Source: Candidatus Bathyarchaeia archaeon (lineage in GTDB: Archaea; Thermoproteota; Bathyarchaeia; 40CM-2-53-6). From it: 49,785 nt of DNA. Numbering within the stretch: position 1 is the first letter of the stretch; the number at the start of each line of letters is the position of its first letter. The DNA is taken from contig JBAVCK010000126.1 of assembly GCA_049586635.1 (NCBI GenBank), positions 1 to 49,785 of the forward strand, given 5' to 3'. Below the pieces are notes generated by a model that saw nothing but the letters and a program-made list of their open reading frames with translations, had not been told where the DNA came from and made no database searches. A program made the position numbers and the translations under genes. Of this stretch, positions 8,485-42,292 are shown in pieces.

Positions 8485-9675
8485 TTATGCCCTTGTTTTT
8501 GCTGGCAGCCTCTGTTTCGGCTTTTCACTGAGCTTCTTAATGCGCCGCTTGACTTCTTGCAAGGTCGTATCTTTCTTACAGTACGCTATGCGAACCTTTC
8601 GTCTGCCCAGCTCCTTGTCGTGGCAGAGAGCGCTCGCGGGCAACACGGCCAACCCAACAGTCTTCAGTAGGTAATCGGTGAATTGTTCCCCATCCTTGAA
8701 TTGGTCGGGGGCGTTCACCAGAATGTAGTAAGCACCCTCTGGCCTGTGGTATTGAAGCCCGGTTTCGTCGAGGATTTTCATCATCGTCCTGCGTTTTCTG
8801 TCATATGCTTCTGAAAGTCTATCGTAATACGAGGGTGAAAAGTTCAGAGCGGTGACGAGAGCTTCTTGCAACGGGGTTGGGGCACAGATAGTTAAATAAT
8901 CGTGAACCTTTCGCAGGGCATTCGTGAGTTTTGCTTCCGCTATGGCCCAACCAACCCTCCATCCTGTGACACTGTAAGTCTTTGATGCGCCACTAACAGT
9001 TACGGTTCGCTCATGCATATTGCCTAAAGATGCTAGGCTTACATGTTTCTTGCCATCGTAAATGATGTGCTCGTATATCTCGTCCGTAACAGCGATTGTC
9101 TTTTCTTCTTCGCATAAGTCCGCAATCAGTTTCAATTGCTCTGTGCTCATCACTTTTCCTGTTGGGTTGTTGGGAGTGTTTAGGACGAGCAGTTTGGGAC
9201 GGGTTGCCATGGCGTTCTTTAGAGCCTCTTCGTCGAGCAGCAGATTACGCCCCACGAAGGGGACGTAGGTTAGTTCGCAGTTCGCCATGATTGCGTCTGG
9301 AACATAGTTCTCATAGAAGGGGTCCGGGACCACGATTCGATCGCCGGGATTTGTTAAACCGAAAATTGCGGCGGCGAGGGCTTCGGTTGAACCGCATGTG
9401 ATTGTAACGTTCTTTTCGGGATCGGCCTCAATGCTGTTGTAATCCTTGACTTTGTTAGCAACTGCCTCCCTAAGGCCCTTGTACCCCCATGTGTTCGCAT
9501 ACTGGTTCGAGCCGTGTCTTATCGCTTCAACTGCTGCCTCGATCAGGTTTGGGGGTGCTGCGAAATCTGGCATGCCTTCGGCGAGGTTTATTGCCCCATA
9601 TTCATCACTCAAACTAGTCATTTCAGCGATAACAGACTCAGTGATGAAACCAAGCTTCGCCGCCAAGAAAGACAC
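8485..9675 (-). CDS. PLP-dependent aminotransferase, class I/II (aspartate/kynurenine aminotransferase-like)
   Basis: 396 aa with NTPNNPTG, SGASKTYSVTGWRVGW (PLP Lys) and an N-terminal INLAEGMPDF motif. Confidence 0.85.
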   Translation of the reverse strand: MSFLAAKLGFITESVIAEMTSLSDEYGAINLAEGMPDFAAPPNLIEAAVEAIRHGSNQYANTWGYKGLREAVANKVKDYNSIEADPEKNVTITCGSTEALAAAIFGLTNPGDRIVVPDPFYENYVPDAIMANCELTYVPFVGRNLLLDEEALKNAMATRPKLLVLNTPNNPTGKVMSTEQLKLIADLCEEEKTIAVTDEIYEHIIYDGKKHVSLASLGNMHERTVTVSGASKTYSVTGWRVGWAIAEAKLTNALRKVHDYLTICAPTPLQEALVTALNFSPSYYDRLSEAYDRKRRTMMKILDETGLQYHRPEGAYYILVNAPDQFKDGEQFTDYLLKTVGLAVLPASALCHDKELGRRKVRIAYCKKDTTLQEVKRRIKKLSEKPKQRLPAKTRA

Positions 9676-9828
9676 TCAGCCGACATGATGAGGATTGGGG
9701 TTTTAAATTAACCCCACTAAAGTGCATTAGATTTGGTGCTAGAGCGCCCTCTTGGCCTGCAACATAGGCAATACGCCACGGGCGGAATCTCCGATGCCTA
9801 AGCAAAGCTTGCGATGGAAACAGGCCGA

Positions 9829-9981: not shown

Positions 9982-10219
9982 GGGAGAACACGTAACCGCA
10001 TGTCTTGAGCCAATTGCTCAAAAGCCTTTCGTGCGACACGGCTGGGCCCATACTCGCCAAGTTAACCCTCCCAGGCGATACCACACATACTGTGTCAAGG
10101 TTGTCAACGTTCGTCGAACGAGACTTTCACTCCGACGCCTATTGAATTTGCAATCTAGAAATCTTCTTTACTTAAGCTGTGCGCAATAGCGGGTTGCTAT
10201 GCTAGGCGAAGCTTTCTCC

Positions 10220-10321
10220 GGGGGCGTAGTCTAGCATGGTTATGATACGCGGCTTGGGCCCGCGTGAGTTGCCTAAACCGCAACCGCGAAGTCCTGGGTT
10301 CAAATCCCAGCGCCCCCACCA
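10220..10321 (+). tRNA. tRNA-Pro(UGG) with one 24-nt intron; genomically encoded CCA
   Basis: Acceptor GGGGGCG/CGCCCCC, anticodon arm CGCGG-CTTGGGC-CCGCG (anticodon TGG), T arm CTGGG-TTCAAAT-CCCAG, and 3' ACCA. There are 24 extra nt (hairpin GTTGC-CTAAACC-GCAAC) between the anticodon loop and the variable loop. The insertion position is ambiguous (38/39 to 43/44) because CCGCG is duplicated. Confidence 0.85.
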
Positions 10322-10473
10322 CAAGCTTTGAATTAGCTCCAACTACCGCGATTCAATGTACCAGGTGGTAAATCAGAACGAACATTTGTAGAATGATCAG
10401 TTGAGCTGAACAGCTGGGAATATTCGATGCCAGCGTCGTTGCTCGTTCTAGCGCCTGATACGGCGCGTCACCA

Positions 10474-10659
10474 TCAAAGGTTGTCAGCGATATTTCCATC
10501 ATAACTTGGAATGCTCTCTCCATGCTGCCTTTGGTAGTGCTTTTTCAGTTGAGCTTTAGTGCTGAAACGCCTGTCACAGAAAACGCACGAGTAGAGCCCG
10601 ATAAGAGGCCAGAGACCGCCCGGCTGCCTGCTCTGATAGTCCAAGGAGGTTTGGCCCAT
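10474..10659 (-). CDS. small classical C2H2 zinc-finger protein
   Basis: 61 aa containing YSCVFCDRRFSTKAQLKKHYQRQH, which is C-x2-C-x12-H-x4-H with the conserved F and L of the TFIIIA-type finger. Confidence 0.5.
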   Translation of the reverse strand: MGQTSLDYQSRQPGGLWPLIGLYSCVFCDRRFSTKAQLKKHYQRQHGESIPSYDGNIADNL

Positions 10660-35790: not shown

Positions 35791-36576
35791 ATGGTCAGAA
35801 AATGCCCAGCATGCGGCTACAACAACCGCGACGACGCAGCATTCTGCTCAAGCTGTGGCTCATCACTCGCAGGCGCAGCAGGACCCACACTCAAACCAGT
35901 CCCTTCAGTCCGAGTTGTAACACCTGTCAGCCCTGGCAACCCGATCAGGGTTCCAGCACCTGGCCAATGTTACTATCACCCTAGCCTACCCGCCGTCTAT
36001 GTTTGCAACCGTTGTGGAAGAGCGATCTGCCGCGACGACTCGAAGGCATACATGGACCTTGTACTCTGTCCGCAATGTTACCAAGGCGTTGTACCGATGG
36101 TAGCAGCTCCACAACAGCAAATGCCATCGATGCAAATGCCACCTTATCAACCGATGCCAGGACCCGCCTACGGTCCACCCCCAATGGCAGCGCCGGCTCC
36201 CTTCATGGGACCATTGCCCCCGCTTTACCAACCTGCTCCCCCGAGAGCTCTCTGGGGCTTCATACTAGCAATGATCGCAGGCATACTTGTGATACTTAAC
36301 GCAGCAGCTTTGCTTTCACCGAGTTTCTACACTCTATGGACAGGCATCTTCTTCTGGTTGCCAGCTGTCGGCCCGGCAAGTCTAACGTTCGCTATAGGAG
36401 CGATAATCGGGCTCATACTGGTAATCGGATCAATACTAATGCTACTAGGATACGGAACCATAGGCAGCATAGTTGTCTTTCCACTTGCTGTCTTGAGCTT
36501 GCTGATCGGCGGTGGCTTCGTGGCCGGATTCGTTCTGGGCGTGCTGGGTGGAATACTCGGCATGCTAGGACGCTAG
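35791..36576 (+). CDS. membrane-anchored zinc-finger protein: RanBP2/NZF-like zinc ribbon + B-box-2-like finger + Pro/Met-rich linker + 3-4 TM helices (candidate E3/adaptor)
   Basis: CPACGYNNRDDAAFCSSCG matches C-x2-C-x3-N-x6-C-x2-C. CYYHPSLPAVYVCNRCGRAICRDD...CPQC matches C-x2-H-x8-C-x2-C-x4-C-x2-D-x9-C-x2-C. The linker is QQQMPSMQMPPYQPMPGPAYGPPPMAAPAPFMGPLPPLYQPAPP. The C-terminal half is hydrophobic and Gly-rich. Confidence 0.75.
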   Translation: MVRKCPACGYNNRDDAAFCSSCGSSLAGAAGPTLKPVPSVRVVTPVSPGNPIRVPAPGQCYYHPSLPAVYVCNRCGRAICRDDSKAYMDLVLCPQCYQGVVPMVAAPQQQMPSMQMPPYQPMPGPAYGPPPMAAPAPFMGPLPPLYQPAPPRALWGFILAMIAGILVILNAAALLSPSFYTLWTGIFFWLPAVGPASLTFAIGAIIGLILVIGSILMLLGYGTIGSIVVFPLAVLSLLIGGGFVAGFVLGVLGGILGMLGR

Positions 36577-36631: not shown

Positions 36632-37774
36632 TTGTCCTACGTGAGCATAGCGAAGCCCGTTAACGATAAAATAGTCCGGGCTGCGCGCACGACTAAGAAT
36701 GAAATAATCGGCGTACTGATAGGACGGTTTCAGGACAATACCATAATAATCGAAGACTCGGTCACCGGTGAATCCGCCGCCGAGCCGCACCGAGCAATCC
36801 TCTCATCGAAAGCGTTGGCGGAGATTGCGGACGGAATTGTGACCGGCCGGATAAAGGGCAATATTGTCGGCTGGTACCACTCACACACCCACGGCGGGCT
36901 CTTCTTCTCGCAAACAGACATCGCAACCCAATCAATACTCCAACAGTTTTCAACACTCATTTCTGGAATGGTCGTGGACGCCTCGACCGGCGATGTGGGC
37001 TTCTTTCGCGTGGAGCCTTCGAGTGGGCAAGCCGTCCGCATATCTGCTGAAAGAATCACAGTCTTCACCGTGCGGTCGGCGGCGGTTCGGCCCGAGGCAA
37101 GAGCGGAGCCCCCTGCTGCGATACCAACGGTCGAAGTGAAGCAGTCTAATTCCCGGATACGCATACTTGGAATCTTCGGAGCCGTTGGTCCTATTGTCTA
37201 TATCGCCGCCGTCTTGATTGGCGGTTTCTTATGGCCTGGGTACTCACACTATAGCCAGACAGTGAGCACGCTCATCTCATCGCGTGCTCCTAACCAAGTC
37301 ATAATGGTGCCTCTTTTCGCCTTCTACAATGTTTGCTTGATCCTTCTGGCGGTTGGTCTATACTATGGAATCCAGAAAGAAGTCAGACACATTTGGGGTT
37401 CGGCGTTCCTAGTCGCCGCAGGCGCTGGGGGCCTGGTTCTCTTTCTTTTCCCGCAAGATTATACCGCCGGTCCTCCGTTCGCTGTATTGGACTTGCTGCA
37501 CTTGGTCATCACAGGAATTATTGCATTCTTCTCGCTTGCAGCGATTGCTCTCTTTTGGCTACAATTCCGTCTCGACCCACGTTGGAAAGGCTACGACCGT
37601 TTCAGTATCGTAATGCTACCAATCGCGCTTACCCTAGGTGTCCTCGGCCTCATCTCGATTTCCGCCCCATACGCAGGCCTTGCCGATAGATTGTCCATTG
37701 GATCATTACTGTTATGGATTGAGGTCGCTTCAACTGGACTCATCATTCGTGGTTCAAAGGGTTCCGCACCGTAG
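36632..37774 (+). CDS. JAMM/MPN+ (Rpn11-like) metalloisopeptidase fused to a polytopic DUF998-like membrane domain
   Basis: Has the catalytic Glu context KNEIIGVLIG and an exact JAMM motif HSHTHGGLFFSQTD (H-x-H-x7-S-x2-D, nt 36878-36919). The C-terminal about 200 aa hold about 6 TM helices and the PGYSHYSQTVSTL signature of DUF998. TTG start (GTG at 36641 is an alternative). Confidence 0.85.
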   Translation: MSYVSIAKPVNDKIVRAARTTKNEIIGVLIGRFQDNTIIIEDSVTGESAAEPHRAILSSKALAEIADGIVTGRIKGNIVGWYHSHTHGGLFFSQTDIATQSILQQFSTLISGMVVDASTGDVGFFRVEPSSGQAVRISAERITVFTVRSAAVRPEARAEPPAAIPTVEVKQSNSRIRILGIFGAVGPIVYIAAVLIGGFLWPGYSHYSQTVSTLISSRAPNQVIMVPLFAFYNVCLILLAVGLYYGIQKEVRHIWGSAFLVAAGAGGLVLFLFPQDYTAGPPFAVLDLLHLVITGIIAFFSLAAIALFWLQFRLDPRWKGYDRFSIVMLPIALTLGVLGLISISAPYAGLADRLSIGSLLLWIEVASTGLIIRGSKGSAP

Positions 37775-38250: not shown

Positions 38251-38844
38251 TTGGATGTCTCGTTGCTGCTGAAGGAAAAGAGCCTGCTCAACCATCAGTT
38301 CCCTACAGTCACTGCAATCGACGACCCACCCACTCAATTCGAAGGCCTCATTCGCTGCGAGAAAGGGGAAGTCATGAAGCTGTCCGAGAAGGGAGTCTGG
38401 CCCTTCACTGATTACACGAACTGGCACCGCTTCAGACTTGATATTCCCCCAGAATACCCGTTAAAGCCACCAGTGGCTACCTGGCTCACGGAAATCTCCC
38501 ATCCAAACATAGTCCCGAAAATACCGAACGCCGTATGCGTTTCAATACTCGGAGAAAAATGGGACCCTAGGCTGAAACTCGTATCTGTCGTCAACGCGTT
38601 ACATTACCTTCTGACCGATCCAAACCCTCAGAGTGTTTTTGATAACCCCCGGGCGCTCAAAGCAGCAGACGTTTGTCGTTCGTACGGATTTCCCAAGATG
38701 ACGAAAGCTAGGCCAACGAATAAGGAAGCCGACGATATTGTCCGCTTCAACGTAGTCCCTGTTCCCGAATTAGCCAAATCTTCAGGCGCAGATGACATAG
38801 TTAGGTTCGATATCCCTGGACGGGTACGCCGAGCGTCTTCTTGA
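38251..38844 (+). CDS. ubiquitin-conjugating enzyme (UBC-fold E2) with C-terminal repeat tail
   Basis: FRLDIPPEYPLKPPVATWLTEISHPNIVPKIPNAVCVSILGEKWDP carries YP.kPP, an HPN triad (38500-38508), the catalytic Cys (38536-38538) and a downstream W.P. TTG start 11 nt after the Ubl stop. The tail has two ADDIVRF[ND] copies. Confidence 0.85.
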   Translation: MDVSLLLKEKSLLNHQFPTVTAIDDPPTQFEGLIRCEKGEVMKLSEKGVWPFTDYTNWHRFRLDIPPEYPLKPPVATWLTEISHPNIVPKIPNAVCVSILGEKWDPRLKLVSVVNALHYLLTDPNPQSVFDNPRALKAADVCRSYGFPKMTKARPTNKEADDIVRFNVVPVPELAKSSGADDIVRFDIPGRVRRASS

Positions 38845-40085
38845 TGCGCATAAGAGCCTCGCTCCCTTCCTACAAAGAGCTCGAAGTGGAGCTGAACCCA
38901 AACAAGACGGTGAAGGATCTCAAGCAAATAATTTGCAAGAAACTAAGCATTGAACCAGAGCTCACCAATCTGCTGGCAGGCGGCAAACTCCTCCCGGAAC
39001 ATTGCCGACTGTCGAAAATCAAGGGCAAAGTAATCGTTGACTACCTTTGGGCGCGACACTTGCTCGTTTGGGGGCCGGAAGGACAGCGGAGGATAAGGGA
39101 TTCATCGGTGCTACTTGCTGGGGCCGGCGCCATCGGGAACGAGGTAGCCAAAAACCTAGCCATGTTGGGAGTCGGCAAAATCTTCATTGTAGACCGGGAT
39201 ATTGTCGAAATGTCTAATGTTAGCCGCATGGTGCTCTTTCAACAAAACGACCTGGGACGGAATAAGGCCGAGGTTCTGGCAGGAAACCTCCACAGAAAAT
39301 ACCCTTTCGTTCAGACGATTGCCTTCACGGGCGACCTCGAGAAGATGCCTCTGAAGTTCTATTTGGACTCGGACGTAGTTGTTTGCGGGCTCGACAATGT
39401 CGTCTCGCGAATTTTTCTAACCCAGATTTGCAGAAAATACTCCATCCCGTTAGTTGATGGGGGAATCACGGGGCTGAACGGTAGAGTGCATGTCTACCTA
39501 CCGCCCGACGATGCGTGCCCTGTATGTATGTTTCCGCCCAACCAGTACTCTAAGATCGTTGGCTTACGAAACCCATGTGATGCACCGTTGGAGCAGGAGG
39601 CCGTTCCATCCTTTGCAACGACGATTTCACTGGTCTCATCAATACTTGCCCAGGAAACGATCAAGCTGATCCTAGGGATGAAGGAATACCGGGCGAACGC
39701 AAAATGGCCTGGAACCAGCGGTCAACCCCTCAGATCTGTCTTGTTCATGGACTTGAAGAATAATCGGTACACCCCGATGGACTTGAAGCGTGGTGAGAAA
39801 TGCTTCGTGTGCGGAAAGGAAGGGACGACTAGAGAACCTGCCCAACGGGCTGATTTGCCGTTCGAAGTTGCCCATAGTTCGAAGGAGAGTTTGGAAGAAA
39901 CTATCCGCCATCACACCAAAATCAAGGCCGGAACATTGAACGTCCTAACGGAAACTTCTGAGGGTTCAAGACTACTTAACGGGCATTCAAGGCTAGGCAA
40001 GGGTATCGCCCGAGGGGACTATCTCAGAGTTCTCGGCGAAGACAAGAACGGAGAGTTTCACGAATCAATTCTAAGGCTGACATAG
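38841..40085 (+). CDS. E1-like ubiquitin-activating enzyme (ThiF/MoeB/UBA adenylation domain) with N-terminal ubiquitin-like domain
   Basis: LLAGAGAIGNEVAKNLAMLGVGKIFIVDRDIVEMSNVSRMVLF is the E1/ThiF nucleotide-binding signature. The CPVC...CFVC zinc pairs are present. N-terminal residues 2 to about 70 (ELEVELNPNKTVKDLKQIICKKLSIEPELTNLLAGGKLL) align by eye with ubiquitin ([37 protein letters not shown]). The start overlaps the E2 stop. Confidence 0.85.
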   Translation: MMRIRASLPSYKELEVELNPNKTVKDLKQIICKKLSIEPELTNLLAGGKLLPEHCRLSKIKGKVIVDYLWARHLLVWGPEGQRRIRDSSVLLAGAGAIGNEVAKNLAMLGVGKIFIVDRDIVEMSNVSRMVLFQQNDLGRNKAEVLAGNLHRKYPFVQTIAFTGDLEKMPLKFYLDSDVVVCGLDNVVSRIFLTQICRKYSIPLVDGGITGLNGRVHVYLPPDDACPVCMFPPNQYSKIVGLRNPCDAPLEQEAVPSFATTISLVSSILAQETIKLILGMKEYRANAKWPGTSGQPLRSVLFMDLKNNRYTPMDLKRGEKCFVCGKEGTTREPAQRADLPFEVAHSSKESLEETIRHHTKIKAGTLNVLTETSEGSRLLNGHSRLGKGIARGDYLRVLGEDKNGEFHESILRLT

Positions 40086-40208: not shown

Positions 40209-40643
40209 ATGCTTGATGCCAATGGATGTCGGGATTTCAGCATGTCAATGTGTCCGGCTTGCGGCTCACCCAACTCTGGGGATGCAAAGTACTGTTTCAA
40301 ATGCGGTGCGATGGTTTCCCGTGGACCACCTGTGAAGGTTGAAGTGCGATCGCCCTTAACTCCCTCCATGAAACCAACTCCGGTTGCTCCAATCGCTCCG
40401 TCAACGTACGTTTCGAGACAAGGCCAAAGACAGGGAAGCTGCTACTATCACTCTGAGCTCCCATCATCGTTCATATGTTCAAGATGCGGCAGGTCGATTT
40501 GCGCAGCCTGTAACAGGCAATACGGGGTTCTAAGCCTGTGCACAGAATGTTACTGGGGATTAGCCCCCAAACTAGGCGCTCCACTCGGACAATATGCGGT
40601 TGCGAGTGAGCAGCAGGCCCGTTCCCCGTTTTCGCTCTTTTAG
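40209..40643 (+). CDS. soluble zinc-finger protein: RanBP2/NZF-like zinc ribbon + B-box-2-like cross-brace finger (candidate E3)
   Basis: CPACGSPNSGDAKYCFKCG matches C-x2-C-x3-N-x6-C-x2-C. CYYHSELPSSFICSRCGRSICAACNRQYGVLSLCTECY matches C-x2-H-x8-C-x2-C-x4-C-x2-C-x9-C-x2-C (8 ligands). It is a paralogue of the N-terminal half of 35791-36576. The true start is probably the MSMC Met (about 40242). Confidence 0.75.
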   Translation: MLDANGCRDFSMSMCPACGSPNSGDAKYCFKCGAMVSRGPPVKVEVRSPLTPSMKPTPVAPIAPSTYVSRQGQRQGSCYYHSELPSSFICSRCGRSICAACNRQYGVLSLCTECYWGLAPKLGAPLGQYAVASEQQARSPFSLF

Positions 40644-42292
40644 GTTAGGCGCCCCTGATTCTTCAGCCGCTCCGTTATTTCCTTGAGTTCGCCCACAGGA
40701 ATTCCGAGATCCGATGAAGCCTTGCTTAAGGATATGACACCTTCATGTTTCACGATGTAATCGTATACTTTTTCGTCCGATGAAGCCGCTGGCATTTCCA
40801 ACGGCGCGCCGCACTTTTCACAAAATGCTCCTTTCGGCACAAGATTCCCACACGTACTGCAAGCCTGCGTTGCAGCTACGAGTGTGGGTGAGCCTCCAGG
40901 TGGGTGGAATTTTTGCGCTTCGCGATTGAAAATACCCCGCCTATACGCGAGGACGATTCCAACGCTAAGAATGGTTGCTAGTCCTCCACCTCCTAGAATT
41001 GCGACCAGTGGAAAGTAGTCAAAGCTCCACTGGGCTTCAACAATATATGGCCTGTCGACGGTCAGATTCCATGAATCACCAGTTCTCTGGAGTACCCCCG
41101 TTGGTGGGTCGAGCCGCAAACCGGTGAGAGCGTATGTTATCGGCCAACTTTGTTCGCCTGCTACAACAGTAATCTTCGCGGACGCCCCGCGGTCGTACCA
41201 TCCCGAACCGGAAACTGAACCATGCGAAGAACGGACGTCCACGTAGTACTGTGTATTGTACGACAGGGTGACTGTACGCGGTTGATCCATCACCACCGTG
41301 TACGATGGGGTCGGGAAAGATGATCCGTTGTCAACCCAACCAACGAAACGAAGGCGTTCGACGGAACTCAAATCGAGGGTCAAGGGAGCCGGCCCAAGTT
41401 GAACGTTTGCGTTAGCACTATACCAGCCCGCATCCGATTCATTGTATTTGGTTGAAATGGTAGCGGGATCATACTGAACGGCAAGTAGGTATTGGGCAAG
41501 GAAATTGGCCTTAACTGTATGCGGCCTGTCCATCACTATGTGGCCAGTCAGCGACTGACCCGTGTAATCGCCGCTCCAGTGATCAAACTTCAGCCGCGTA
41601 TTGCCAGTTGCCGTGACAATCGCATTTACTGAGAAAGTAGCCGGACTCCCTGAATCATACCACACAGAACCGGCAAGACTCGAGACGTTGGGTGGGTCCG
41701 ATTCAACCGTCAAGAAAAACTGTGTCTTCCAGTTCGCTATGGCACTTTTTGCTCCGGTCATCAGGATGCTATTCGAACTCGTATCGGTGCCAGAGGCATC
41801 TCCTGACCACCCAGCAAATACTTGCCGCGTCCCCTGGCCTTCGTCAATCTGACGATCTTGAACAGTTGCCTGTGCTGAGGCACCGGAGTTGTACCATCCC
41901 TGGCCGGTCGGAGTACTGTAGGACGACTGTACAGTAAGATAGTACTGCGCCGTGTAGGTGAAAACGTGGTTGCCTGACGCGCTGAAACCCCATGATGCTT
42001 CTTGCTCATAGTATCGGGTGCCGTTTGCACCGATGCTGCTTGGGATGTAGGAGTCTACCGTAATCACATGGCCTATGTTTGAAGTTGCGAAACTGAATGA
42101 GCTTGTCTGGCCACCGACCATCGTCGTATTGAATGACCCGTCGACGTAGACATTTGTGCTAATTGTGGTGGGGAGGCCAGCGATTGTTATTGAAACCGCG
42201 TAAGTTGCCTGCGCACGAGCAGTTGGAATGAAAAGGCCAGCGATGACTATGCAGATGAGCAGCGTCAAAAGTGGCCGCGCTGAGATGGGCAA
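40640..42292 (-). CDS. single-pass membrane protein: extracellular repeated beta-domains, cytoplasmic zinc ribbon + winged-helix domain
   Basis: Has a signal peptide and four or more repeats of Q(Y/F)(Y/F)L.V.S...G.GWY..G(A/S)... (InlB-B-repeat-like). These are followed by a TM helix (VAILGGGGLATILSVGIVLAY), CSTCGNLVPKGAFCEKCG, and then EKVYDYIVKHEGVISLSKASSDLGIPVGELKEITERLKNQGRL (wHTH). Confidence 0.65.
   Translation of the reverse strand: MPISARPLLTLLICIVIAGLFIPTARAQATYAVSITIAGLPTTISTNVYVDGSFNTTMVGGQTSSFSFATSNIGHVITVDSYIPSSIGANGTRYYEQEASWGFSASGNHVFTYTAQYYLTVQSSYSTPTGQGWYNSGASAQATVQDRQIDEGQGTRQVFAGWSGDASGTDTSSNSILMTGAKSAIANWKTQFFLTVESDPPNVSSLAGSVWYDSGSPATFSVNAIVTATGNTRLKFDHWSGDYTGQSLTGHIVMDRPHTVKANFLAQYLLAVQYDPATISTKYNESDAGWYSANANVQLGPAPLTLDLSSVERLRFVGWVDNGSSFPTPSYTVVMDQPRTVTLSYNTQYYVDVRSSHGSVSGSGWYDRGASAKITVVAGEQSWPITYALTGLRLDPPTGVLQRTGDSWNLTVDRPYIVEAQWSFDYFPLVAILGGGGLATILSVGIVLAYRRGIFNREAQKFHPPGGSPTLVAATQACSTCGNLVPKGAFCEKCGAPLEMPAASSDEKVYDYIVKHEGVISLSKASSDLGIPVGELKEITERLKNQGRLT

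Follow-up and report, generated by a model that had tools for sequence, protein, structure and literature searches.

The window considered here is a stretch of 49,785 nucleotides (nt) from a Candidatus Bathyarchaeia archaeon (contig JBAVCK010000126.1, assembly GCA_049586635.1). At positions 35791-36576 of its forward strand it encodes a protein of 261 amino acids (aa), here called ZF-TM, that combines an N-terminal zinc ribbon, a second cysteine cluster resembling a B-box, and a membrane anchor. There is strong evidence that the ZF-TM family is a conserved part of a Bathyarchaeial ubiquitin-like operon that encodes no RING protein, and ZF-TM is, on the basis of this operon context, the best candidate for the E3-like or targeting/adaptor subunit of that operon, an assignment that is offered tentatively and held at a little under even confidence. 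The genes follow one another on the same strand in the order ZF-TM, JAMM-DUF998, ubiquitin-like protein (Ubl), E2, E1, and a soluble paralogue of ZF-TM (Table 1). The ZF-TM frame is uninterrupted from its first ATG, with an in-frame stop six codons 5' of this ATG and a GGAGG sequence 12-16 nt upstream. A reading of the DNA made earlier from the letters alone (the sequence-only reading) had placed the gene at the head of the operon, and this placement agrees with its first position in the row, with the 55 nt that separate it from the JAB gene, and with an upstream gap of ~390 nt in which no RNA genes were found. Each of the motifs listed in that reading is present in the protein. In public annotation the E2 is named, and the few ZF-TM homologues that have names are mostly called "zinc-ribbon domain-containing protein" or "hypothetical protein" (in one case, "RNA polymerase subunit RPC12/RpoP").

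The association between ZF-TM and the ubiquitin-like genes is evident from comparison of loci. A word-indexed search recovered 244 ZF-TM homologues, and the 120 that were listed are all full length (234-289 aa) and 53-100% identical to the query. When one genome per GTDB species was scanned, full-length relatives were found only in metagenome-assembled genomes (MAGs) of Bathyarchaeia, apart from a few contigs in bacterial MAGs, and the best match (L005) is 97% identical. In the same scan, Ubl, E2, and E1 were found downstream in the same order at 22 of the 23 loci that have a full-length ZF-TM and at least 5 kb of downstream sequence. Most of these loci also have a detectable JAB gene directly 3' of ZF-TM, and the distance between the two is ~55-60 nt wherever an adjacent JAB was detected. 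This synteny persists down to 41-53% protein identity, with flanking genes that are wholly different between loci. Among metagenome loci centred on the E2, ZF-TM lies upstream in 19 of the 20 with enough upstream DNA, and the soluble paralogue follows E1 in all 45 (45/45). Every complete neighbourhood (41/41) contains at least one B-box open reading frame (ORF), with two in 36 neighbourhoods and one in the other 5. The losses of the two paralogues are complementary: an aspartokinase gene occupies the place of ZF-TM in one lineage that keeps the soluble paralogue (L095/L034), and three loci that keep ZF-TM lack the paralogue (L001, L012, and L013). All of the operon loci come from a single class, the Bathyarchaeia.

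The same loci contain no RING. As the sequence-only reading had stated, no RING spacing is present in the cluster; a regular-expression search of all six-frame ORFs of at least 40 aa found none in the window, and the C3HC4/C3H2C3 pattern occurs in 0 of 109 related E2 loci (1.08 Mb). The Prok-RING_1 score is 16 bits, compared with a cut-off of 29.1. Searches that started from the E2 and were aimed at sister operons with a RING returned only close Bathyarchaeial E2s; identity was no lower than 73% in the 80 loci kept from one search and no lower than 62% in the matches listed from another.

The second cysteine cluster of ZF-TM is best supported, from sequence comparisons, as a B-box of the prokaryotic type. 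The cluster reads C60-x2-H63-x8-C72-x2-C75-x4-C80-x2-D83-x9-C93-x2-C96 (nt 35968-36078), and its first six putative ligands fit the B-box type 2 consensus C-x2-H-x7-9-C-x2-[CDHE]-x4-C-x2-[CD] exactly, with the same spacing as in MID1 B-box2. Against the Pfam family zf-B_box (PF00643, gathering score 24.1 bits), the isolated domain scores 23.0 bits (E 9e-5), the whole protein 16.6 bits, and the soluble paralogue 18.8 bits, and 130 of 149 family members match at E<=0.01. A HMMER search of 1.84 billion representative proteins with the domain profile gave matches in 441 clusters at E<=1e-3 and in 56 at E<=1e-10. When 69 domains from the best-scoring of these diverse relatives were compared with known families, zf-B_box was matched at E<=0.01 by 66 (best 1.9e-8) and the ANCHR-like B-box by 38, as opposed to one match for LIM and two for DZR, and several full-length relatives exceed the zf-B_box gathering score (P0252, 35.0 bits; P0312, 29.1; P0222, 26.7; P0307, 24.3). 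The earlier proposal that this cluster fits B-box type 2 is supported by the relatives, with the ZF-TM domain itself at 23.0 versus 24.1 bits. Comparison with sequences of the PDB gave only marginal matches for a broader profile (RNF4 RING, 1.3e-3; PINCH LIM, 1e-3; TRIM28 B-box2, 2e-3; MID1, 6e-3; PML B-box1, 0.03) and nothing meaningful for the narrow family profile.

The likeness to the B-box2 of TRIM proteins (MID1, TRIM28, TRIM5) consists of the spacing C-x2-H-x8-C-x2-[C/D]-x4-C-x2-[C/D] and of a Pfam match over profile positions 4-28. The difference lies in the fourth ligand pair, which in ZF-TM is C-x2-C after nine residues that are predicted to form a beta-hairpin, whereas the canonical pair is H-x2-4-[CH] (H-x2-4-H in TRIM B-box2) after three to six residues; furthermore, ZF-TM has neither the coiled coil nor the RING partner of TRIM proteins. 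Of the prokaryotic relatives, 136/140 have a C-x2-C fourth pair, and ZF-TM shares with the prokaryotic B-box radiation (Burroughs, Iyer & Aravind 2011, cited in PMC4506424) the domain signature C-x2-H-P-x6-7-C-x2-C-G-x3-C-x2-C-x6-12-C-x2-C. When 149 sequences of both paralogue families were aligned together, no variation was seen at C60, H63, C72, C75, C80, or C93, and conservation was at least 90% at C5, C8, C19, C22, and C96. Since the motifs of ZF-TM are kept both across its homologues and in the paralogue family (78 members for the ORF at 40209-40643), they are not due to chance. At position 83, the membrane family has D or, in some members, C, and the soluble paralogue has C, an alternation that is expected of a metal ligand. 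An AlphaFold model built from the 149-sequence alignment has a predicted local distance difference test (pLDDT) score of 79-87 over the B-box (aa 58-100); a single-sequence run gave values <50 for the N-terminal half.

The available evidence leans towards a cross-brace arrangement, in which ligand pairs 1+3 and 2+4 would each bind one zinc. The family profile has 408 domain matches, of which 340 possess the full set of four ligand pairs and 51 possess pairs 2+4 only; in these 51, which represent ~16 related proteins of one repeat-protein family, pairs 1+3 have been lost together and pairs 2+4 are kept at an identical 17-residue spacing. No match among the 408 keeps only pairs 1+2 or only pairs 3+4. 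The joint loss of pairs 1+3 is as predicted by a 1+3/2+4 arrangement and is the opposite of the pattern predicted by two independent ribbons. Homology to B-box2, together with identical spacing as far as ligand six, would also make an altered pairing unparsimonious. The strands modelled by AlphaFold (67-71 and 78-80, with C72/C75 at the hairpin turn) are compatible with a cross-brace. A mean-field direct coupling analysis of 274 domain sequences (effective number 136) was dominated by invariant and gappy columns and was discarded. In this type of repeat protein, P0251, P0256, P0260, P0297, and related proteins contain three to four repeats of a single-zinc module, C-x2-C-G-[KR]-x-I-x13-C-P-[DE]-C-[FY], that matches B-box pairs 2+4 only; the module could be related to the prokaryotic B-box as a mononuclear form.

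The N-terminal finger of ZF-TM is, judged by its profile matches, an ordinary zinc ribbon of the Zn_Ribbon_1/DZR type. It had been described in the sequence-only reading as NZF-like because of the cysteine spacing C5-x2-C8-x3-N12-x6-C19-x2-C22, and this spacing is indeed identical to that of RanBP2/NZF fingers; however, it is also identical to that of the very common prokaryotic Zn_Ribbon_1. The Pfam scores separate the two families clearly, with 30.6 bits for Zn_Ribbon_1 (cut-off 25) and 29.7 bits for DZR (cut-off 27.3), compared with only 10.6 bits for RanBP (cut-off 27), and the relatives behave alike, matching Zn_Ribbon_1 in 148/149 cases and RanBP2/NZF in 15/149 at E<=0.01. In the ribbon alignment, the position two residues before the first cysteine is K, R, L, or V, residue 9 is always G, and position 10 varies, so that the NZF hallmarks, namely the Trp of W-x-C and a conserved T-F ubiquitin-binding dipeptide, are both missing. 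When the ribbon profile was searched against solved structures, the matches were to DZANK1 (3e-10) and to the ArnA zinc ribbon of Sulfolobus acidocaldarius (PDB 5a8i, 1.3e-7), and no NZF was found among the best 60. The identity as an NZF was rejected on these grounds. The ribbon motif is nearly the same as that of ArnA (KCNLCGYENDDDALFCIKCG in ArnA versus KCPACGYNNRDDAAFCSSCG), but the Zn_Ribbon_1/DZR family covers only the first 26 residues of ZF-TM and is uninformative on the remainder.

Between the ribbon and the B-box, a stretch reading K-P-V-P-S-V-R-V-V-T-P-V (KPVPSVRVVTPV) is nearly invariant in both paralogue families (P36 invariant; V37, V40, V42, and P45 at least 90% conserved), in a region of the model (aa 32-48) where pLDDT is <50. 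Two conserved motifs that resemble this stretch, DDIVRFNVVPVP and DDIVRFDIP, are present in the C-terminal tail of the E2 (aa ~160-190), where F166, P170, P172, and F186 are invariant. The linker stretch and the E2-tail motifs may be versions of one short linear motif that would engage a Ubl fold by beta-augmentation.

The B-box is followed by a spacer of 51 aa (aa 101-151) that includes 19 Pro, 7 Met, 7 Ala, and 6 Gln residues as well as the sequences MPPY and PPLY. Across the family this spacer ranges from 40 to 76 aa in length, is variable in sequence, and consists of 36% Pro and 6% Tyr. The sequence-only reading had pointed to PPLY as a PPxY-type sequence, and it is present; however, PPxY occurs in 29 of 71 family members, compared with a fraction of ~0.3 of members expected from composition. 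It is consequently not a conserved motif, and a functional role for it was rejected as a matter of compositional chance in a spacer with 36% Pro. The membrane anchor had been predicted to contain three or four transmembrane (TM) helices, and AlphaFold together with a hydropathy scan settles on four (~154-175, 196-218, 222-239, and 244-258); hydropathy alone resolves TM1 (~154-175) and a continuous hydrophobic block (~190-259) that AlphaFold splits into three. No Pfam family matches the anchor. In a Foldseek comparison of the full AlphaFold model with the PDB, only the membrane bundle was seen, with non-significant matches to four-helix bundles (E >0.6).

An E3-like or targeting role is the favoured reading of ZF-TM, and part of the argument for it comes from the surface of the E2. 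The E2 is of a canonical, eukaryote-like kind. Its residue W78 is invariant and, in the textbook mapping, occupies the position of UbcH5 F62; this position and W104-x-P106 in loop 7 are sites at which UbcH5 and UbcH7 make contact with RING or U-box domains. Mutants of E2 in loop 4 and loop 7 also underlie this mapping of docking positions (PMC5654768). Retention of the RING/U-box docking positions suggests that the E2 has an E3 partner of RING-like shape, and the two B-box paralogues, of which at least one is always present, are the only conserved proteins of the neighbourhood that would be of the two-zinc, RING-like kind. In the Caldiarchaeum operon the E3 is a small RING zinc protein (PMC5654768), and E3 activity without a RING has its precedent in TRIM16, a protein with B-boxes only for which such activity has been reported (PMC3357404). 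Archaeal Ub/E1/E2 operons without a recognised E3 are also known and have been treated as simpler intermediates (PMC6043591). The E2 docking residues, the constancy of the B-box, and the precedents of Caldiarchaeum and TRIM16 together are the reasons for favouring an E3-like or targeting role.

Several considerations weigh against this reading. Among eukaryotic B-boxes, E3 activity is exceptional, and the domain of ZF-TM lies just below the Pfam cut-off and has a non-canonical fourth pair. The operon of one lineage (L095/L034) lacks ZF-TM altogether, one MAG contains a stand-alone ZF-TM between unrelated genes (L015), and paralogues with a zinc ribbon (CPECGADNRDDAIYCSSCG), a Pro-rich spacer, and a four-helix Gly-zipper anchor but no B-box (L039-L041, ~10001-10543) have no E1, E2, or Ubl gene nearby. 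The domain type is also generic, since its 441 clusters include rhomboid fusions in bacteria without an E2 nearby. The distant relatives include bacterial membrane proteins with an N-terminal C-x2-H-P...C-x2-C-G...C-x2-C...C-x2-C module, and among them are B-box-rhomboid fusions from Mycobacterium, Kitasatospora, and Acidimicrobiia; genes for E1, E2, or Ubl are absent within 10 kb of those bacterial relatives. The sequence-only reading had named a fold that is broad in genomes without E2 as the finding that would tell against it, and such breadth is seen for the domain type (the actinobacterial rhomboid fusions) but not for the ZF-TM family itself, which is operon-linked in Bathyarchaeia. Because the domain type is widespread without E2, the candidate E3/adaptor function rests on operon context and not on the domain. 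According to the passage of PMC4506424 that cites Burroughs et al. (2011), prokaryotic B-boxes are linked to the folding, stability, and proteolysis of membrane proteins and not to ubiquitin. The actinobacterial B-box-rhomboids resemble ZF-TM in having an N-terminal cytoplasmic B-box on a membrane protein, beside or fused to a membrane peptidase, but they are not linked to E1, E2, or Ubl genes, whereas the ZF-TM family is fixed in a ubiquitin-type operon and adds a preceding zinc ribbon, a conserved linear motif, and a soluble paralogue.

In the favoured reading, ZF-TM would be a Bathyarchaeia-specific membrane protein whose whole N-terminal half lies in the cytoplasm, with the zinc ribbon as a generic protein-docking module. 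The B-box, possibly aided by the zinc ribbon or the linker motif, would offer the charged E2~Ubl, or the Ubl, a docking site on the inner membrane face, and the flexible Pro-rich tether of ~50 residues would hold the E2~Ubl near the membrane. Proteins close to the membrane would then be tagged, the tag would be reversed by the neighbouring membrane-bound JAMM peptidase, and the soluble paralogue encoded after E1 would have the corresponding role in the cytosol. The full picture, in which Bathyarchaeia possess a complete ubiquitin-like cascade with a B-box in place of a RING as E3, in a soluble and a membrane form beside a membrane-bound deubiquitinase, is a possibility that is at present regarded as doubtful.

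Other roles for ZF-TM would account for part of the same evidence. Its position directly 5' of JAB at a distance of ~55-60 nt, wherever JAB was detected adjacent, is what might be seen if ZF-TM were a partner or regulator of the membrane JAMM (JAB-DUF998), with a B-box that binds peptide tails and presents or gates substrates and with no part in conjugation. The fusion of JAB to a membrane or Ig-like protein, or the presence of such a protein next in the row, the B-box-rhomboid fusions in Actinobacteria, and the association of prokaryotic B-boxes with membrane proteolysis (as PMC4506424 reports it from Burroughs 2011) point in the same direction. Such a partnership is nevertheless considered unlikely, as ZF-TM is kept in lineages without a detectable operon JAB (L002/L017, L023, and L025), JAB-DUF998 is kept in a lineage that lost ZF-TM, and the soluble B-box paralogue adjoins E1 and not JAB. 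The conserved elements of the N-terminal half could alternatively make ZF-TM a receptor for the Ubl (through the ribbon and/or the KPVPSVRVV motif, in the manner of an NZF or SIM) or the main target of conjugation, marking a membrane site. The same type of ribbon is found on ZF-TM, on the soluble paralogue, on the cytoplasmic tail of the surface protein encoded convergently, and on the JAB of L001; moreover, the motif is invariant and strand-like within a disordered linker, the E2 tail has repeats of a motif like it, and the lysines K34 and K85 are conserved. Yet Zn_Ribbon_1 is extremely common on archaeal membrane proteins, the NZF residues that bind ubiquitin are absent, and the ribbon-JAB fusion occurs in only 1 of 75 loci. 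A receptor or acceptor role also gives no reason for the B-box to be what sets the operon copies apart from the paralogues elsewhere that lack it, and it appears quite unlikely.

Finally, ZF-TM could be a co-located membrane protein unrelated to Ubl chemistry, for example a zinc-dependent scaffold for the convergent surface protein, and owe its place beside the operon only to co-regulation or to genomic inertia in a single clade. All of the loci belong to one class, so some of the synteny could reflect shared ancestry, and the copy in L015 stands alone. This explanation is judged very unlikely, given that synteny extends to 41-53% identity despite wholly different flanks and that no complete operon is without a B-box paralogue, the two being lost in complementary fashion. 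A place in an anti-phage Ubl system (Bil, CBASS Cap2, or 6A-MBL) was rejected, the match to PADLOC/NCBIfam being to a generic E1 adenylation domain only; ZF-TM, the Ubl, the E2, and the paralogue had no match among the PADLOC/NCBIfam defence models.

Functionally, the proposed E3-like arrangement has an analogy, and nothing closer than an analogy, in Hrd1 and Doa10/MARCH, the eukaryotic membrane-embedded RING E3s in which a cytosolic two-zinc domain on a multi-pass anchor acts together with a soluble E2; the anchor of ZF-TM showed no sequence relationship in the searches made, and the RING-like cytosolic domain of ZF-TM would be a B-box and not a RING. The closest known systems are the E1-E2-srfp(RING)-Rpn11 operons of Caldiarchaeum subterraneum and Asgard archaea (PMC5654768, PMC6043591). 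These share with the Bathyarchaeial operon a compact layout, a eukaryote-like Ubl, a UQ_con E2 (HPN plus Cys), a ThiF E1, a JAMM, and a small operon-encoded zinc finger protein predicted to bind two zincs. The Bathyarchaeial operon differs in that it has no RING and instead encodes two proteins with a zinc ribbon and a putative B-box, one of them on a four-TM anchor, and in that its JAMM is fused to a membrane domain, its Ubl ends directly in GG, and its E1 has an N-terminal Ubl domain.

No description of a B-box component of Bathyarchaeial ubiquitin operons was found in the literature, the search of which did not extend to subscription journals. The parts, that is, an archaeal E1-E2-E3 operon and the prokaryotic B-box, were known; the novelty lies in their combination, in which a pair of B-box proteins is found instead of a RING and one of the two is a membrane protein next to a membrane-bound JAMM. 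Reconstructions of how the eukaryotic system originated draw on archaeal ubiquitin operons, and the only archaeal E3 demonstrated so far is a small RING. Should the E3-like role of ZF-TM prove true, RING-like domains other than RING would have been recruited to E2 systems before or outside eukaryotes, with the B-box as one clade recruited to E2-dependent ligation outside eukaryotes, and the contested idea of the B-box as a ligase would gain an independent example from nature. Five small proteins would then suffice for a direct test of Ubl tagging at a prokaryotic membrane. The complete cascade with a B-box E3 would be a prokaryotic forerunner or analogue of membrane-localised ubiquitylation of the kind seen in endoplasmic-reticulum-associated degradation (ERAD) or with MARCH. 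If the B-box proteins are neither E3 nor adaptor, the result still defines a conserved, membrane-centred neighbourhood of eight genes.

Table 1. ZF-TM, its domains, and the neighbouring genes, in coordinates of the window.
Feature	Position	Strand	Basis
ZF-TM, zinc-ribbon and putative B-box membrane-anchored protein, 261 aa; operon gene 1	35791..36576	+	Homologues, conservation, AlphaFold, synteny
N-terminal zinc ribbon, aa 4-26, C-x2-C-G-x2-N-x-[DE]-D-A-x-[FY]-C-x2-C-G; Zn_Ribbon_1/DZR	35800..35868	+	Pfam, PDB profile search, column conservation
Short linear motif KPVPSVRVVTPVS, aa 34-46, in low-confidence linker	35890..35928	+	Column conservation; pLDDT
Predicted prokaryotic-type B-box, aa 58-100, ligands C60,H63/C72,C75/C80,D83/C93,C96	35962..36090	+	zf-B_box scores, pLDDT, ligand-pair loss
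Disordered spacer rich in Pro/Met/Ala/Gln, aa 101-151	36091..36243	+	Composition, AlphaFold
Four-helix membrane anchor with conserved Gly-zipper C-terminus GGGFVAGFVLGVLGGILGMLGR	36244..36573	+	AlphaFold helices with pLDDT >90; hydropathy
JAMM/MPN peptidase (HSH-x7-S-x2-D) fused to DUF998 membrane domain	36632..37774	+	JAB 6e-11, DUF998 1e-20; synteny
Ubl, GG followed directly by stop codon	37973..38239	+	Sequence, Pfam
E2, UQ_con, HPN motif, catalytic Cys96; two DDIVRF motifs in C-terminal tail	38251..38844	+	Pfam, alignment
E1 (ThiF) with N-terminal ubiquitin-like domain	38841..40085	+	Pfam
Soluble ZF-TM paralogue, 144 aa: zinc ribbon, linker motif, and putative B-box, without membrane anchor	40209..40643	+	37% identity, E 5e-22; 78-member family
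Convergent neighbour: InlB-B-repeat ectodomain, TM, cytoplasmic Zn_Ribbon_1, C-terminal tail of ~50 aa	40640..42292	-	Pfam, synteny

Additional observations were made on the neighbouring genes. The soluble paralogue (40209-40643) has C-x2-C at the position of C80-x2-D83, is more constant than ZF-TM (45/45 loci), and may be the core E3-like subunit. The C-terminal part of the 550-aa convergent protein (40640-42292, reverse strand) is conserved beside the operon in almost every Bathyarchaeial locus whose downstream sequence is long enough, and this product is the third zinc-ribbon protein of the neighbourhood. One protein from the search of representative proteins (P0241) carries two B-boxes, a weak Yip1-like match below the cut-off, and an InlB B-repeat in one chain. 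The N-terminal Ubl domain of the E1 (38841-40085) matches PF00240 over aa 11-59; Cluster I/II archaeal E1s have been described with a C-terminal UFD only. Three contigs in bacterial MAGs (L029, L032, and L037, from Acidoferrum, Methylomirabilota, and Acidiferrales) contain the complete archaeal operon at 59-92% identity and probably represent binning errors in public assemblies.

The gene slot between ZF-TM or JAB and the Ubl is variable across several lineages. In L001, a locus without the soluble paralogue, the JAMM (8979-9803) has an N-terminal Zn_Ribbon_1 (MVIKCPTCDSSNKDDAISCSVCG), the single such case among 75 JAB loci. An Ig-like protein without a JAB domain lies between ZF-TM (or JAB) and the Ubl in L002 (9031-10176) and L001 (9806-10711), replacing DUF998. 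The same two divergent loci have an actin-family (crenactin-like, PF00022) gene ~3.5 kb 3' of the operon (L001, 16291-16801; L002, 16069-16783).

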